From Candidatus Aenigmatarchaeota archaeon (GTDB taxonomy: Archaea; Aenigmatarchaeota; Aenigmatarchaeia; QMZP01): DNA of 22,423 bases. The notes under the pieces are model-generated. The model was not told the origin of the DNA, searched no databases, and saw nothing but the letters and a program-made list of their open reading frames with translations. This document shows positions 1,495-15,742 of the stretch, in pieces. Position 1 is the stretch's first letter. The number at the start of each line of letters is the position of its first letter. The position numbers and the translations under genes were made by a program. Location of the stretch: contig JAVZYR010000010.1 in the NCBI GenBank assembly GCA_038999435.1, positions 1 to 22,423 of the forward strand, read 5' to 3'.

Positions 1495-2910
1495 TTAATT
1501 TCCTTTTATTGCATCCCAATACTTGATATTATGTATGCATCCAGGATCAGGGCCCTGTAGGTCACCGAAATAGCCATATGCACGGGCTCGACAACCACCG
1601 CATATATTCCTATATTGACACACTCCACAGTTTCCCTTGAATTTCGCTCTATCCCTTATTTTTTTCAAAACCTCTGAATTTTTCCATATATCCAAAAATC
1701 TATTCTGCCTTATATTACCTATCTTTAGAGGTATAAAAACGCATGGATAGATATCTCCATTCGGCTCTAATGCTGCATATATCCTACCTGCACCACATCC
1801 ACCAATGAATTCGGCTAGCGATTTTGTTTTTCCTTTTAAGTTTTGCATCGCCATTCTATCAGTAAAATGCGTTACTATAACAGGGCCATCAATCGACTCC
1901 ATTGAAATCCTTGAAAATTGTGGGGCAGTTGAAAAAATATCAATTGGGCAATTTTTATCTAAAAGTTTTGAATATAAAAATTTTAGCAAATTTTCTCGTT
2001 CCTGTGGGCTTATATCTTGATCTGCTATATCCTTACCTCGTCTCGTTGGAATAAAATTAAAAAATATCATGCGATTTGGCTTTAGCTCATTTTCAACCCA
2101 TTTGATAAAATCTGGTATCTCTTTGTAGTTCCATTTTGTGACTGTACAAGCAATGCATGTATCAATACCTGCAGCAATGCAATTTTTTATACCCTGACAT
2201 GTTCTCTTCCATATTCCAGGAATACCTCGAAAACCATCATGTGTTTTTTCAAAGCCATCAAGTGAGATTTCAATATAATCAACAATCTTTTTCAACTCTT
2301 TTGCAATCTTTGGTGTTATAAGTGTTGCATTGGTTGCTATTGAAATATGAAAATCTTTTTCCTTTGCATATCTTGCAATCTCGAAAAAATCTTGTCTGAG
2401 CAGTGGCTCTCCACCTGAAAATGCAATTGCAACAACACCTGCATCTGCAAGCTCATCTATAATCTTTTTTGCCTCCTCTGTTGTCAGCTCATCAGGCAAT
2501 GTATAAGAATTAGAATCTTGATAACAATGCTTGCATCTAAGATTGCATTTTTTTGTCAGATCCCATACAATAAGGAATGGTGCCGCTGTTGTTTGCGGTG
2601 TTTGAACCCCAAACTCGGCTATGCCTTTAACAACATTCACTATTGCACGCCTGAAATATGTCTTTTTAAGAAATGATTTAAGCTCATCTTCAGGTATATC
2701 AAAAATCTTTGATGCTTTTCCCAAAAATCTTGAGATAAAAACATAGGCAATCTTATCTCTAAAATCTAATTTGATGTCAGCGCCAGAATATACTAATAGC
2801 AAAACCTCCATTCTATTTACGAAAAATCTCAAAAACAATCTTGTTAATCTATTACCAAGCCAATTTTGCGTAATTTCTGCAATGGTTTCTATATCACTTG
2901 CTTTTTTCAT
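1495..2910 (-). CDS. Radical SAM protein with SPASM domain (NirJ/PqqE-like fold, substrate unknown)
   Basis: CNLRCKHC, FSGGEPL, and SPASM cysteines CGAG...YPC...CGVCQYRNICGGCRARA...DPGC. ATG 2910 preferred over TTG 2925. Confidence 0.9.
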   Translation of the reverse strand: MKKASDIETIAEITQNWLGNRLTRLFLRFFVNRMEVLLLVYSGADIKLDFRDKIAYVFISRFLGKASKIFDIPEDELKSFLKKTYFRRAIVNVVKGIAEFGVQTPQTTAAPFLIVWDLTKKCNLRCKHCYQDSNSYTLPDELTTEEAKKIIDELADAGVVAIAFSGGEPLLRQDFFEIARYAKEKDFHISIATNATLITPKIAKELKKIVDYIEISLDGFEKTHDGFRGIPGIWKRTCQGIKNCIAAGIDTCIACTVTKWNYKEIPDFIKWVENELKPNRMIFFNFIPTRRGKDIADQDISPQERENLLKFLYSKLLDKNCPIDIFSTAPQFSRISMESIDGPVIVTHFTDRMAMQNLKGKTKSLAEFIGGCGAGRIYAALEPNGDIYPCVFIPLKIGNIRQNRFLDIWKNSEVLKKIRDRAKFKGNCGVCQYRNICGGCRARAYGYFGDLQGPDPGCIHNIKYWDAIKGN

Positions 2911-2933
2911 AATAAATAGATTCAATATAAATA

Positions 2934-3347
2934 TTAAAATTCATTGTCTCCTATTTTACCATCATTATTAAAATCAGGAAATATCAATTTATAACCAATC
3001 GGCAACTTTTTGTCATCTCCTATGTACGGATAATCAGGACATGATAAATCATTTAATTTACAGACGTAATTCCTGCATAATGGTACCCAATCGATACCAA
3101 GCTCTGTATTGCGTAACTCCTTTTTACATAGATTTGTTATATTATCACCTTCTTTAAGTCTATATTCAATTGTTCTCAATGTTTGCATTTCTTCATTTTT
3201 TTCTTTATATTCTAAAAAATCTTTTGAAAAAAAATACACTGACAAGCAAAGCAGAGTAGAAAATGCGATACCTAAACCTATGTTTGTATATTTTGAAGTT
3301 AGACCTTGTCCATTGAGATATTTTTTATCAGCAAAGTCATATTTCAT
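2934..3347 (-). CDS. Membrane-anchored protein with LysM-like domain
   Basis: One TM segment (IGLGIAFSTLLCLSVYFF), then YRLKEGDNITNLC...LNDL...LPIGYKLIFP resembling the LysM consensus; C-terminal DFNNDGKI. Confidence 0.55.
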   Translation of the reverse strand: MKYDFADKKYLNGQGLTSKYTNIGLGIAFSTLLCLSVYFFSKDFLEYKEKNEEMQTLRTIEYRLKEGDNITNLCKKELRNTELGIDWVPLCRNYVCKLNDLSCPDYPYIGDDKKLPIGYKLIFPDFNNDGKIGDNEF

Positions 3348-10259: not shown

Positions 10260-11138
10260 TCAGGATTTGGGCATCTCATAAGAGCCCAAAACTCTAACCA
10301 CTTCAATATCCCTGCCTTTTGGTGTCAGTTTGTATTTTAGCGAGTCTATACATCTTACCAAATCAGTATTGGCTTGATGTTCCATTATTTCCAGATAGAA
10401 CATCTGAGGTTCGAGACCTTCTATTTCTACATCGTCCAATGCTGGCCTGGAATGTATCTTTGCAAGATTTAGGTTGTGATATGCTATTTGCTGAAGTATC
10501 TCTGCCAATAGCCCTGGTTTATCCATATGAGGAGTTATTGCTACCATTGTAAGATATCTTTTTGATGGGTCATACTCTTGCCAATTTTCTCTAGCAACAA
10601 GGTAGAAATCTGTAAAATTTGTTCTACGGTTCTTTTTATTTCCTATATCTTCTGCAATAATTCGTAAGCCATAGTTTTTTAATGCTTCAGAACTAGCAAT
10701 CGCTAAGCCAGATTTCATTTCCGCTACTTTTTTCGCAGCTGCTGCTGTACTTGTAACTGGTATTTGTTTGCTATTTCTATAATAGCGCCATAACCATTCT
10801 GAACATTGCGCAAGGGCTTTAGGATGTGAGTATACCTCACCTTCATTAGTATTTTCTCTGTGAGCACCAATAGATAATATTATTGGCAATCTCTGCATCG
10901 CATTTATTTTGAGATCATTTTCATATATCAGATCTAAACATTCTTGTACCAGTCCTTCAAGATAGTTGTAATAAGCCATCACTCCCATATCTACTTCACA
11001 CGAAGCCACGCTGGTTGCGACTGCTTGTAAAGATACCATTTCTACAAGTTCCGTTTCTTCTTTAATTTTTTCTGCAAGCATTTTTGTTGCTTGCCCAGTA
11101 TATGTGTTTTCAGGACCCAAATAACCTATTTTTTTCAT
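10260..11138 (-). CDS. pheA: Prephenate dehydratase with ACT domain (divergent)
   Basis: IGYLGPENTY, SHPKALAQC, STAAAA, N.TDF, DKPGLL...NLAKIHSRP...FYLE...VLGSY; strong SD GGAGGTG at 11151-11145. Confidence 0.88.
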   Translation of the reverse strand: MKKIGYLGPENTYTGQATKMLAEKIKEETELVEMVSLQAVATSVASCEVDMGVMAYYNYLEGLVQECLDLIYENDLKINAMQRLPIILSIGAHRENTNEGEVYSHPKALAQCSEWLWRYYRNSKQIPVTSTAAAAKKVAEMKSGLAIASSEALKNYGLRIIAEDIGNKKNRRTNFTDFYLVARENWQEYDPSKRYLTMVAITPHMDKPGLLAEILQQIAYHNLNLAKIHSRPALDDVEIEGLEPQMFYLEIMEHQANTDLVRCIDSLKYKLTPKGRDIEVVRVLGSYEMPKS

Positions 11139-11142
11139 TTTT

Positions 11143-11279
11143 TACACCTCCGTATTTTATTTTTGTTAATTTATAACCGGATCTCTTTTTTCATTCCCAG
11201 GAAATAGGGTTTTTCAGACCCGAAAAGCAAGGGAACTTATTAAGAGATGTAGACAAATTTAGAAAAAGCTAAATACAAA
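11143..11279 (-). promoter_or_regulatory. Structured pheA 5' leader (candidate attenuator)
   Basis: Nested stems 11279-11271/11157-11149, 11259-11253/11174-11168, 11248-11242/11187-11181, 11235-11231/11198-11194, 11221-11218/11210-11207. Confidence 0.55.
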
Positions 11280-11303
11280 TTTTTGATTATATTTTTGCAC
11301 CAT
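11259..11303 (-). CDS. Putative Phe-rich leader peptide MVQKYNQKFVFSFF (pheL-like)
   Basis: ATG GTG CAA AAA TAT AAT CAA AAA TTT GTA TTT AGC TTT TTC TAA; 4 of the last 6 sense codons are Phe; ends 120 nt upstream of pheA. Confidence 0.6.
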   Translation of the reverse strand: MVQKYNQKFVFSFF

Positions 11304-11323
11304 ATTTATTAATAATGATAAAA

Positions 11324-11340
11324 TATTTAAAATTTTTGTT
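11324..11340 (-). promoter_or_regulatory. BRE/TATA promoter giving a leaderless transcript of the leader ORF and pheA
   Basis: AACAAAAA-TTTTAAATA ends 20 nt before the leader ATG, similar to the spacing at rpoN. Confidence 0.55.
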
Positions 11341-13642: not shown

Positions 13643-15742
13643 ATGAAAAGGCAGATTTGGTTTGTTTGGCTTTGTATATTTTTTATGTTGGGGATAGGGT
13701 TTGTAAAAGCTCCAGAACCTTTTGACTTTATTATTTTACCTCAAAATTATCAAATATTTAATACGAATATAAATTTACCTTTAAATTACACAATTGATGG
13801 TATAAATTTCACCATCTATTGTTGGTATAATATTACCACTGGAAATGCCTCATCATGTACTGTAAATGATTATAATTCATCAACAGATATTCTAATTCCT
13901 GAGTGTCAAAACACAACTTTCAATATAACTGGTGATGATGGTTGGTATTCAATAACACTAGTAGCAAATAATAGTTTAAATGAAAAAATATGTAATTATA
14001 GGAATTTTGCAATAGACACTACAAGCCCGAATATTACAATCCAACAGCCAATCAGTTATTATAACTATAGCACAGGACTTCTACTAAACTATACAATTGA
14101 AGATGCCGTAGCAGGTGTTGATATCAACACTTGCCGATTTTCAGTTGTTTATGAAAATGGAACAGTTGTTATAGATAATCAGTCTCTTCCAAATTGTGCC
14201 AATTCAACATTTGATGTTAGTTTTGATGGTAAATACAATTTAACCATTTGGGCAAATGATACTGTTGGGAATGTAGGAAACTCTACTATTAATTTCACCA
14301 TCGATACAACAAAACCATATCTCATTAATGTAACCATTTTAGGTGGATACTACAATGGAACAGATTATTTCTTTTCACCAGCAAATCAAGATAATTTGTA
14401 TGATAGGATAACTTTTACAGCAACAGCAAATGAAATTGTTAACTGGAGTAGGCAATATGTTTGGAATTCTAGTAATATAAGCGTGAAATATTTTGAAAAG
14501 GTGAATAATAACAGTTCTATTACTAAGGGCCCATGGGATTTAAATTTAACATTAACAACTGATGATTGGGCAATAGATGGTTATTATTTCATAAATGTTA
14601 CAATAACAGATTTGGCAGGTAATTCAAATTCCACAGAGATACTTCATTTTTATGTTGACAACACACCCCCTGTAATCAACCTAATATCCCCTGCCAATAA
14701 TACCTGGTCAAATAAATCAAGCAATGACCTCATCTTCAGCTTTTCTGATACATTCTCTCCAACTGCAAATTGCTCTCTTTACATAAATGGAACATTGAAT
14801 CAAACAAACGAATCAGCCCTAAATAACACAGAAACAACCTTTTCTGTCAATCTTGTTGATGGCACGTATACATGGGGTATCACATGCAAAGACTTGGTAG
14901 CTAATGAGAATTCGTCAGAAACAAGGATAATTAATATCGATACCATTGCTCCACAAATTGCCTTTATCACCCCAACACCTGATAATGGCTACAAGCAGAC
15001 AGAAAAAAGCTTTGTTATAAATGTCAGTCATAATGAAAGTAATCCTGACAGGATTTCAATCTATTTGAATTCTACCCTTGTATGGGAAGGCTCTTATAAC
15101 GGCTCAAATGGTTTTACAAACTGGACATTCACCAATTTGACTGACGGGGTATATAGCTATTATGTCTGTGTCAATGATGGTGCTGGAAACCAAAACTGCA
15201 CAGAAACAAGAAACATTACAATTTATACAGCATCGCAAGGTGGTGGAGGAGGAACAAGCGGATCTTCTTGGTTTGGCGGCGGAGGTGGTGGTTCTATACA
15301 GTCTATCTGTCAATCAAATTGGACATGTACTGTATGGTCAGAATGTGTAAATGGCACGCAAACAAGAACATGCATAGATGCTAATGAATGTAAAATACCT
15401 ACAACAGATAGACCTACTGAGATCCAAAATTGCACCGAACCTGTGAAGGTATGGACATGTGAGCCGAGCGAGACAACATGCTGTGAACTTGGTAAGATCC
15501 GTTGTATCAATGGTATTTTGGAACAGTGCAGCAATTATACATGGCAGTTCTTCCATTCATGTGCAAGTGGAAGATGTGCTGATGAAAGGTCATGCGAATC
15601 ACAAATTGGTGGATTTACAGGTCAAGCCATTCTTGGCAATCCGTCGTTCCTTTCATTGATAGCAGCTATCTTAGGACTTTCGATTTTGACAACTTTGCTT
15701 ATCCTGAGAAGAAAAAGGAAAATAACTACCTATTATCCTTAA
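13643..15742 (+). CDS. Cell-surface glycoprotein: signal peptide, Ig-like repeats, Gly linker, Cys-rich module, C-terminal TM anchor
   Basis: Repeated ND.AGN...IDTT.P units, dense N-x-S/T sequons, GGGGG linker, CQSNWTCTVWSECVNGTQTRTC, TM plus RRKRK. Confidence 0.88.
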   Translation: MKRQIWFVWLCIFFMLGIGFVKAPEPFDFIILPQNYQIFNTNINLPLNYTIDGINFTIYCWYNITTGNASSCTVNDYNSSTDILIPECQNTTFNITGDDGWYSITLVANNSLNEKICNYRNFAIDTTSPNITIQQPISYYNYSTGLLLNYTIEDAVAGVDINTCRFSVVYENGTVVIDNQSLPNCANSTFDVSFDGKYNLTIWANDTVGNVGNSTINFTIDTTKPYLINVTILGGYYNGTDYFFSPANQDNLYDRITFTATANEIVNWSRQYVWNSSNISVKYFEKVNNNSSITKGPWDLNLTLTTDDWAIDGYYFINVTITDLAGNSNSTEILHFYVDNTPPVINLISPANNTWSNKSSNDLIFSFSDTFSPTANCSLYINGTLNQTNESALNNTETTFSVNLVDGTYTWGITCKDLVANENSSETRIINIDTIAPQIAFITPTPDNGYKQTEKSFVINVSHNESNPDRISIYLNSTLVWEGSYNGSNGFTNWTFTNLTDGVYSYYVCVNDGAGNQNCTETRNITIYTASQGGGGGTSGSSWFGGGGGGSIQSICQSNWTCTVWSECVNGTQTRTCIDANECKIPTTDRPTEIQNCTEPVKVWTCEPSETTCCELGKIRCINGILEQCSNYTWQFFHSCASGRCADERSCESQIGGFTGQAILGNPSFLSLIAAILGLSILTTLLILRRKRKITTYYP

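Follow-up and report, generated by a model that had tools for sequence, protein, structure and literature searches.

The pheA gene on a 22,423-nt contig of a Candidatus Aenigmatarchaeota archaeon (JAVZYR010000010.1, assembly GCA_038999435.1; this whole stretch is called the window below) is preceded by a leader in which a short Phe-rich upstream open reading frame (uORF) is followed by a three-helix RNA structure, here called the rod. Both elements are conserved over 18-20 distinct sequences whose prephenate dehydratase (PDT) proteins are 27-83% identical to that of the window. On balance, we favour the view that this is a cis-regulatory leader of pheA which reads phenylalanine supply through the ribosome and acts by translational unmasking. 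That the leader ORF senses Phe is likely. Translational unmasking is the front-runner among the outputs considered, with an output at the level of the transcript in second place, and we put it forward tentatively. The minus strand of the window is the coding strand for both the leader and pheA, and coordinates are those of the window unless a locus is named (Table 1). The assembly comprises 0.55 Mb in 30 contigs with 38% G+C and is 86% complete as judged from marker genes; the sequences compared come from metagenome bins, and reads of four DNA sequencing runs yielded no usable variants.

A Phe-rich leader ORF upstream of pheA

Four of the last six codons of the window uORF encode Phe (positions 9, 11, 13 and 14; TTT at 11279-11277, 11273-11271 and 11267-11265, TTC at 11264-11262). 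Another 17 leaders with a rod, and leader L006, which lacks the rod, carry homologous Phe-rich uORFs of 13-25 codons. The 18 distinct rod-bearing leaders share one order of elements, namely a TATA box, the ATG about 30 nt further on, the uORF, the rod, which starts 5-14 nt past the uORF stop, a spacer and a Shine-Dalgarno (SD) sequence. In these 18 leaders each uORF carries 3-8 Phe codons near the C-terminus, within the last 7-10 codons, and the peptides are otherwise divergent, as illustrated by MVQKYNQKFVFSFF, MSSHNQSIYFWFSFC, MGNNSLFFRFFFFC, MRAQSKQGFFSFFR and MAESRFFGFEFFC. Counted over 12 uORFs, there are 54 Phe codons in frame compared to 15 and 22 in the other two frames. TTC is used alongside TTT, the L040 uORF containing one TTT and three TTC codons; thus it is Phe codons that are conserved, and not mere runs of T. 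Since the peptides share little but Phe near the C-terminus, they match a codon sensor and not a functional peptide.

A TATA-like box begins 28-32 nt, mostly 30 nt, before the uORF ATG in all 12 leaders for which the distance was computed, and about 29-31 nt before it in six more that were counted by eye. Promoter letters A9, A10, T14, T15 and T17 are invariant in an alignment of 10 leaders. In archaea, the TATA box is usually centred near -26/-27 from the transcription start. Given this spacing and a TATA box 28 nt upstream of the ATG, the window transcript should begin at or beside the A of the uORF ATG, which would make the uORF leaderless. Because the TATA box about 30 nt before the uORF is conserved and the spacer is devoid of a conserved promoter, we infer that the uORF is co-transcribed with pheA. 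An alternative promoter at TTATAAAT (11176-11169), raised in a first-pass annotation of the window, falls in this spacer, a segment of variable sequence and length, and nothing equivalent to it is seen in the homologs.

The same annotation had proposed a Phe-rich, leaderless leader ORF as part of the pheA unit, and this proposal is supported by the conservation of promoter position, frame, Phe enrichment and gene association in 18 leaders. The positions it gave are also correct throughout (TTTTAAATA at 11332-11324, the ORF at 11303-11259, UUUGUAUUU at 11279-11271, AAAUACGGA at 11157-11149, the SD at 11151-11145 and TTATAAAT as above).

In the window, L013 and L016, uORF codons 4-6 (AAAUAUAA or AAAUACAA) can pair with codons 9-11 (UUUGUAUUU) to form a local hairpin of 8 bp (11294-11271 on the minus strand of the window). 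One of its pairs is U-G in the window and C-G in L013 and L016, and the hairpin is specific to this subgroup. A programmed frameshift at UUU UUC was considered and rejected, as the stops of the other frames, inspected by eye, are not conserved.

A covarying three-helix rod

When applied to nine full leaders, RNAalifold predicted the rod as the sole conserved structure, with consensus helices P1 (CUCUU/AAGAG), P2 (UUCC/GGAA) and P3 (GGU/ACC). In a MAFFT alignment of nine sequences 92.1% of the cells are paired. The corresponding values are 87.6% for 15 sequences and 89.1% of 293 cells for 20 sequences in alignments that were fitted to the model and are thus biased toward it, which the MAFFT alignment is not. 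Among 20 rods, 13 of the 15 pairs have changed on both sides: all seven of P1, all five of P2 and one of P3. None of 500 shuffles equalled the observed pairing values, and sliding the 3' partners by 1-3 columns left only 40-55% of the cells paired. Compensated P1 variants include GCCCCU/AGGGGC (L037), CCUGAU/AUCAGG (L078), UUUCUG/CAGAAA (L079) and CUCUCA/UGAGAG (L040), and P2 is compensated in L039 (GCCAA/UUGGC). The first-pass annotation had recommended that the regions upstream of homologous genes be examined for a Phe-rich uORF and covarying stems, and both are found there. Its caveat that TTT codons and A-U stems arise by chance in AT-rich DNA loses its force in view of a uORF and rod kept in 18-20 sequences, the in-frame excess of Phe codons and the covariation of the rod.

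The leaders, which are rich in A and U, were folded under nearest-neighbour rules at 37 °C. In the isolated window segment the rod is the minimum free energy (MFE) structure, at -18.3 kcal/mol (z = -2.64), and 2 of 200 shuffles fold equally well. The internal loop between P1 and P2 is nearly invariant, with A-Y-A-A on the 5' side and G-A-A-A on the 3' side, while P1 and P2 themselves vary freely. A pair of pyrimidine-rich, unpaired linkers connects P3 with P2; most rods have linkers of 8-13 nt, whereas those of L039 reach 30 nt. The letters of the internal loop do not fit a K-turn or a sarcin-ricin motif, and these two readings were rejected by eye; a UAA/GAN-type loop is a possible candidate. 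A second ORF inside the rod was likewise rejected, its frame and length differing among homologs (partly by eye). Rfam gave no match, either for the window at E up to 1 or for the leader alone at E up to 10. As for a riboswitch, a rod fold and invariant loops are present, and there is no platform that overlaps the SD (spacer of 27-120 nt). In L037 (minus strand), which is richer in G+C, the gap of about 90 nt between rod and SD accommodates two additional strong hairpins, one of about 10 bp and one of about 9 bp; the other leaders lack them.

Distribution and gene association

Scans of genome and metagenome collections yielded 9 and 15 homolog loci, respectively, and their upstream regions revealed a Phe-rich ORF at the corresponding position in nine more distinct sequences. 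Relatives of PheA are numerous in metagenomes, at 64-81% identity. Close PheA homologs were found in none of 24 genomes of the same family, with two distant matches among the 41 relatives searched, and in only 2 of 371 genomes of a phylum sample. Two other archaeal orders, reached via L006 and L005, added L034, L035, L037, L038, L039 and L040; the leader of L034 is identical to that of L016 over the stretch read. A covariance-model search then located the rod in 8 of 151 genomes of the second order, adding L073, L076, L077, L078 and L079.

Of 20 rods, 17 precede a PDT gene, and two of these encode proteins only 27% and 39% identical to that of the window. The remaining three (L073, L078 and L079) precede ORFs of 176, 85 and 93 aa, each with an SD and the second of them Cys-rich. 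No Pfam or NCBIfam family was found for these ORFs, and an Atlas look-up of the 176-aa ORF gave no usable match. They may be members of a Phe-controlled gene set.

Two covariance models of the rod, R1 and R2, each match the window's own genome once, before pheA. R1 matches the L005-bearing genome once and the L006-bearing genome not at all, and it found no rod in 90 other genomes of the same order. True rods score at least 37 bits and noise at most 30 bits, which leaves a clean gap. Sibling rods with another anticodon were sought among the R2 matches below 30 bits in the 151 genomes; the best eleven were inspected, look like noise and were discarded.

The leader is absent at L004 (= L015), a G+C-rich contig where a LemA-like gene abuts a pheA of 77% identity at the protein level, and none of the bacterial homolog loci (L007-L011, L025 and L026) has the Phe-rich ORF. 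L035 (2395-2592, minus strand) carries a decayed leader before a 74%-identical pheA. There, the ATG is replaced, a GTG being in frame, loss of the stop lets the reading frame continue across the rod, and both the stem and the loop of P3 are disrupted (AATCTAAAAAACC).

The next ORF of at least 90 aa after pheA is convergent in five of the eight loci listed, the neighbours vary from locus to locus, and pheA appears from its surroundings to be monocistronic. The leader and the gene thus look like a self-contained unit that moves together.

Table 1. Position of the elements of the pheA leader in the window, with the leader peptides and ORFs of homologous loci.
Feature	Position	Strand	Remarks
PvlArgDC gene (pyruvoyl-dependent arginine decarboxylase; Pfam PvlArgDC)	11929-11384	(-)	Upstream of the leader
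Archaeal promoter: A-rich stretch resembling a B recognition element (BRE), and TATA box TTTTAAATA (11332-11324)	11324-11338	(-)	From the sequence; TATA starts 28 nt before the uORF ATG
Leader ORF, 14 codons and stop	11259-11303	(-)	MVQKYNQKFVFSFF*; ATG 11303; TAA 11261-11259
Three-helix RNA rod, 68 nt	11181-11248	(-)	Begins 10 nt past the uORF stop; RNAalifold consensus and pair counts
Helix P1	11248-11242 with 11187-11181	(-)	
Joint J1/2	11241-11237	(-)	AAUAA
Helix P2	11236-11231 with 11198-11193	(-)	
Linkers P2-P3	11230-11222 and 11206-11199	(-)	Pyrimidine-rich
Helix P3	11221-11218 with 11210-11207	(-)	
Tip loop L3	11211-11217	(-)	CUGAAAA, 7 nt; U at 2, GAA at 3-5; closed by U-A, G-C, G-C
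Joint J2/1	11192-11188	(-)	GAAAA
A-rich spacer, rod to SD	11152-11180	(-)	Contains TTATAAAT (11176-11169); from the sequence
SD of pheA, GGAGGTG	11145-11151	(-)	6 nt before the ATG; GGAGG-type SDs equally placed in homologs
pheA, 292-aa prephenate dehydratase, C-terminal ACT-like region	10260-11138	(-)	Pfam PDT, 139 bits, E = 1.8e-40; ATG 11138
Leader peptide, L013			MTQKYNQKFVFSFF
Leader peptide, L016			MTRKYNKKFVFIFF
Leader peptide, L005 (= L017)			MTRDSILKFVFSFF
Leader peptide, L020			MTRDSILKFAFSFF
Leader peptide, L006			MMLKYNKKFEFIFF
Leader peptide, L018 (= L019)			MSSHNQSIYFWFSFC
Leader peptide, L021			MMNKSFFGFFSFSFY
Leader peptide, L022			MGNNSLFFRFFFFC
Leader peptide, L023 (= L024)			MKFTCDFSFFFFW
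Leader peptide, L040			MRAQSKQGFFSFFR
Leader peptide, L038			MQQIFKNQFFGFFFSS
Leader peptide, L037			MAESRFFGFEFFC
Leader peptide, L039			MNTTIKKSTGIFFFKFL
Leader peptide, L073			MRMQTNRIFFEFCFN
Leader peptide, L076			MMHDIVYFTFEFFY
Leader peptide, L077			MQSTTMFWFSFSFN
Leader peptide, L078			MQKIIINIIFQAFFSFF (read by eye)
Leader ORF, L079			25 codons, 8 Phe
Non-PDT ORF after rod, L073	957-1487	(-)	
Non-PDT ORF after rod, L078	1636-1893	(+)	
Non-PDT ORF after rod, L079	1657-1938	(+)	

The tip loop resembles a tRNA-Phe anticodon loop

The tip loop reads YUGAAAA, closed by U-A, G-C and G-C pairs, in 19 of 20 rods, the exception being the decayed L035. It matches the anticodon-loop pattern of tRNA-Phe, with U at position 33 and GAA at positions 34-36. 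Neither this loop nor the conserved 68-nt rod as a unit had been recognised in the first-pass annotation. Viral contigs were scanned for the P3 13-mer together with a downstream GAAA...AGAG motif, and two matches were obtained. One lies on the phage contig L042 (372-445), in a cluster of tRNA genes for Asn, Ile and Phe. Here the 13-mer GGTCTGAAAAACC is letter-identical to the inner anticodon arm of a tRNA-Phe(GAA) gene confirmed by ARAGORN, the full arm of which, CTGGT-CTGAAAA-ACCAG, contains it exactly. The other match, L041, is a chance match in coding DNA and was set aside. The one tRNA-Phe readable from the leader-bearing group has the arm CTCGA-CTGAAGC-TCGAG. Its loop, CUGAAGC, has only CUGAA in common with the rod and is carried by another stem, so the likeness to archaeal tRNA-Phe is limited to positions 32-36.

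A model for ribosome-dependent control of pheA

In the mechanism that we favour, transcription would start at or beside the uORF AUG and the leaderless 14-codon ORF would be read from the 5' end of the RNA. As a ribosome that starts at the 5' end has 3-8 Phe codons to read, scarce Phe-tRNA should hold it there, and the first ribosome would halt on the Phe codons just short of the rod. A ribosome usually covers about 12 nt beyond the codon in its A site. Halted at the final Phe codons, it would therefore end just short of P1, and on the stop codon it would reach 1-4 bp into P1 for a gap of 5-8 nt, so that the position of the ribosome should set the state of the rod. The stalled ribosome would cover the U-rich tail of the uORF, P1-P3 would stay folded, and the A-rich spacer, the SD and the pheA start would be open, allowing PheA to be made. 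When Phe is plentiful, the ribosome would reach the stop codon, with its front edge at the base of P1, and then depart. The bare U-rich tail, joined in the window by the anti-SD-like 5' strand of P1 (CAUCUCU), would then close over the SD and start codon, and less PheA would be made. The rod would be the 'on' fold, in which pyrimidine strands are hidden behind decoy purine strands (AAGAG and GGAAU).

Folding of the window leader is compatible with this scheme. The MFE structure pairs ACAUCUCUU with ACGGAGGUGU at the SD, and CUUUUUC with the AUGAAAAAA region. Masking the uORF, as the first-pass annotation had suggested for a ribosome footprint, raises the accessibility of the start codon from 0.34 to 0.98. 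With a mask that extends to 10 nt past the stop, SD accessibility rises from 0.19 to 0.67 and the probability of P1 from 0.29 to 0.96. In the rod-less L006, there is perfect complementarity of 10 bp between the Phe codons UAUUUUUUUC and GAAAAAAAUA at the pheA start, in the first codons of the gene, and masking raises SD accessibility from 0.03 to 0.74. This locus (2894-3003) keeps the leader ORF MMLKYNKKFEFIFF and only a remnant of P3 (GGTTTGAGAGATT), and is a possible minimal form of the switch. Overall, masking raises the accessibility of the SD and/or the AUG in about 9 of 14 leaders.

Several observations weigh against unmasking as the output. Masking closes L018, L021 and L023, where it lowers accessibility. 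A scan of the uORF and the post-rod segment against the start region gave only matches of 4-5 nt between U runs and purine runs, with no conserved SD-masking helix. Duplexes between the tail and the start region are barely better for cognate (-8.8 kcal/mol) than for non-cognate (-7.7 kcal/mol) partners, and when 113 start regions of the genome are ranked as partners for the Phe tract, that of the window pheA comes 93rd. Measured in 13 leaders from where the R1 match ends (6 nt beyond P1), the downstream ATG lies 27-120 nt away, a variation that one would not expect of a precise pairing switch; the intervening sequence is not conserved. For several homologs, folding of the free RNA gives the rod a probability of about 0.8-0.97 from the outset, so that nothing toggles. 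Sequencing-run labels refer to hot springs; at 70 °C the predicted stability of the rod is only -4.6 kcal/mol, and A-U duplexes would be weaker yet. Finally, the near-invariant YUGAAAA and A-Y-A-A/G-A-A-A letters are left unexplained by the model.

A more specific switch had been proposed initially, in which the Phe-codon stretch UUUGUAUUU pairs over 9 bp, including two G-U pairs, with AAAUACGGA at the SD. This helix exists on paper. However, it has an ensemble probability of only about 3% in the 186-nt leader, and forcing it costs 3.6 kcal/mol relative to the MFE structure. Nor is it conserved: UUUGUAUUU is also present in L013 and L016, the closest homologs, but a complementary UAC is missing before their SD. 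As a non-conserved, minor species with the rank and duplex energies just given, it was abandoned as the basis of the switch. The inner three of the further nested stems that accompanied it are, with the pairing forced, P1-P3, and these are the conserved and covarying part of that structure.

Alternative explanations

The same sensor could act on the transcript, an alternative that we regard as unlikely but place second. A stalled ribosome would hide a U-tract from aCPSF1 (FttA) or from 5'-to-3' decay; once the ribosome has left, the exposed U/C-rich leader would be bound or cut and transcription or the mRNA would end before pheA, the rod serving as a pause, a shield or a platform. The variable spacer of 27-120 nt suits a decision made at the rod rather than the SD. 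Runs of at least five T, from T5 to T8, occur between rod and SD in 5 of 18 leaders by eye (L018, T5; L023, T5 and T6; L038, two T5; L040, T7; L079, T8 and T7), the Phe codons create U-tracts of at least five in most uORFs, and two beta-CASP ORFs of 638 and 424 aa are encoded in the window's own genome. In archaea, aCPSF1 is reported to act together with terminator U-tracts (PMC8716108, PMC11616081), and T runs are termination signals (PMC8716108). However, no T run of at least five is present in the rod-SD spacer of the other 13 leaders, the window included. The uORF of L040, which uses UUC, has no U run longer than three, so that a U-tract signal is not universal. We also know of no archaeal case in which the ribosome controls access of aCPSF1.

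Alternatively, the rod could be the operator for a protein that recognises the anticodon loop of tRNA-Phe, most simply phenylalanyl-tRNA synthetase, with uncharged tRNA-Phe as competitor and the uORF as a second, cooperating input. Such an operator would account for a YUGAAAA loop that persists in 19 of 20 rods next to freely varying P1 and P2 helices, for a 13-mer identical to a real tRNA-Phe anticodon arm, and for internal-loop letters that are conserved without a pairing partner; a hairpin held on two unpaired linkers (8-13 nt mostly, 30 nt in L039) is a recognisable, flexibly held module. However, the mimicry covers only positions 32-36 of the tRNA-Phe of the leader-bearing group, whose loop is CUGAAGC on another stem, the regulated gene encodes a prephenate dehydratase and not the synthetase, and the loci listed showed no conserved neighbour that might encode a binding protein. 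We consider this operator improbable.

The tethered tip could also mimic the anticodon arm of tRNA-Phe on the translation machinery itself, filling the empty A site in cis or recruiting phenylalanyl-tRNA synthetase, and thus lock the stall. The tip, which two flexible linkers hold some 45 nt past the hungry Phe codons, would act while the A site waits on UUU or UUC. The locked stall would be shielded from ribosome rescue and the signal to make PheA would be prolonged. We give this idea a rather remote chance, but if it were true, the leader peptide would be coupled to a tRNA mimic that acts in cis and matches its codons, a mechanism without described counterpart.

More remote still is a pseudoknot formed in cis when the free leader pairs its Phe codons with L3 (UUUUUC/GAAAAA), which would mark the ribosome-free state, a U-turn-type loop providing for fast RNA-RNA pairing. 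UUUUUC occurs in 10 of 19 intact uORFs, counting L006, and GUUUU or GGUUUU in four more (by eye), and L3 fits the YUNR pattern of fast-pairing antisense loops. On the other hand, L040 allows only four contiguous pairs, and six A-U pairs are weak, especially at high temperature. Moreover, any Phe-rich ORF is by definition complementary to GAAAA, so the match provides no independent signal.

Chance in AT-rich DNA, or a free-standing gene for a small peptide or small RNA unrelated to pheA, is hardly credible: T-rich codons and A-U stems are common in a genome of 38% G+C and three rods precede ORFs without a PDT domain, but conservation and covariation extend over 20 sequences, the promoter distance is fixed, Phe codons are enriched in frame, the gene that follows the rod encodes a PDT in 17 of 20 cases despite divergence down to 27% identity, and the peptide sequence is conserved only in its Phe residues.

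Comparison with known leaders

The arrangement recalls the enterobacterial pheL-pheA and pheM-pheST attenuators, in which a short Phe-codon-rich ORF lies directly upstream of a Phe-pathway gene (for pheA, one of the same activity) and in which, as is presumed here, stalling takes place at hungry Phe codons. Unlike these, the archaeal leader has an archaeal promoter, a leaderless ORF and a different conserved RNA fold, with neither a terminator hairpin and U run, none of which precedes pheA in the window, nor conserved, mutually exclusive helices. The covariance model of Rfam Phe_leader, which we take to be RF01859, does not match it within the E-value limits given above. The archaeal leader is thus an analogue of pheL and pheM and not a member of their class.

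E. coli thrS has an operator whose leader contains anticodon-arm mimics that are bound by threonyl-tRNA synthetase. Like the rod, that operator presents a leader hairpin with a 7-nt loop carrying the anticodon for the amino acid of the gene in a tRNA-like context; unlike the pheA leader, it has no leader ORF and regulates the synthetase itself, whereas here the gene encodes a prephenate dehydratase and binding is putative. T-box leaders of Gram-positive bacteria are also cis-acting leaders that report tRNA charging to amino-acid genes. However, a T-box displays a codon to the tRNA, while the rod loop displays the anticodon GAA and not UUC or UUU, and there was no Rfam T-box match. We know of no T-box in archaea.

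Leaderless poly-Cys small ORFs (sORFs) of mycobacteria are described as Cys-responsive translational attenuators in which stalling of the ribosome keeps an RNA structure from hiding the ribosome-binding site (10.1101/834739). The sORFs and the pheA leader have in common a run of codons for a single amino acid and, as predicted for pheA, a sensor ORF at the 5' end of the mRNA and control of the gene that follows on that mRNA. The mycobacterial sORFs are bacterial and sense Cys; in our models, the SD-hiding duplex is found for the window and L006 and is not conserved across the family, and the archaeal leader contains an additional conserved, structured domain with a tRNA-like loop.

Genomic context

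The ACT match in the C-terminal region of PheA is weak (20 bits, under the Pfam cut-off). The genome also encodes a CM_2 chorismate mutase (C8:22649-22888) and a class I/II aminotransferase (C22:7456-8484). In this 86%-complete assembly, chorismate synthase, 5-enolpyruvylshikimate-3-phosphate (EPSP) synthase and prephenate dehydrogenase were not found. Since the chorismate mutase, the PDT and the aminotransferase are present, and the upstream enzymes and prephenate dehydrogenase were not found, the organism may run only the last steps, from chorismate to Phe. No leader ORF was seen upstream of the chorismate mutase gene. A tRNA-Phe gene was not found in the genome by ARAGORN, run with and without introns, or by pattern scans; as the assembly is 86% complete and its tRNAs have odd introns, nothing follows from this.

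Elsewhere in the window, a 699-aa ORF (13643-15742, plus strand) combines a hydrophobic segment at the N-terminus and a membrane anchor at the C-terminus with dozens of N-x-S/T sequons, a Gly-rich linker and a Cys-rich stretch. From these features it is probably a glycosylated surface protein.

Significance

Sensing of amino-acid supply by a leader peptide is a textbook bacterial mechanism. Archaeal transcription terminates differently and many archaeal mRNAs are leaderless, so how such a device would work in archaea is not obvious. Full-text literature searches, whose coverage excludes subscription journals, returned no paper on an archaeal leader-peptide attenuator. As judged from sequence comparison, the pheA leader probably lets the ribosome gauge Phe supply in this archaeon and in about 20 related sequences. 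It offers a compact archaeal case of about 165 nt, with 20 natural variants, a fold backed by covariation and a clear predicted transcription start. It also adds an undescribed structured RNA in which the most conserved part imitates the anticodon loop of the tRNA for the same amino acid; no matter what recognises the tip loop, tRNA mimicry and control by a leader peptide would be linked in a new way. For the biology of these organisms, the finding suggests that regulation of the residual last stretch of Phe synthesis persists even in host-dependent archaea as small as this one, whose genome measures about 0.55 Mb.

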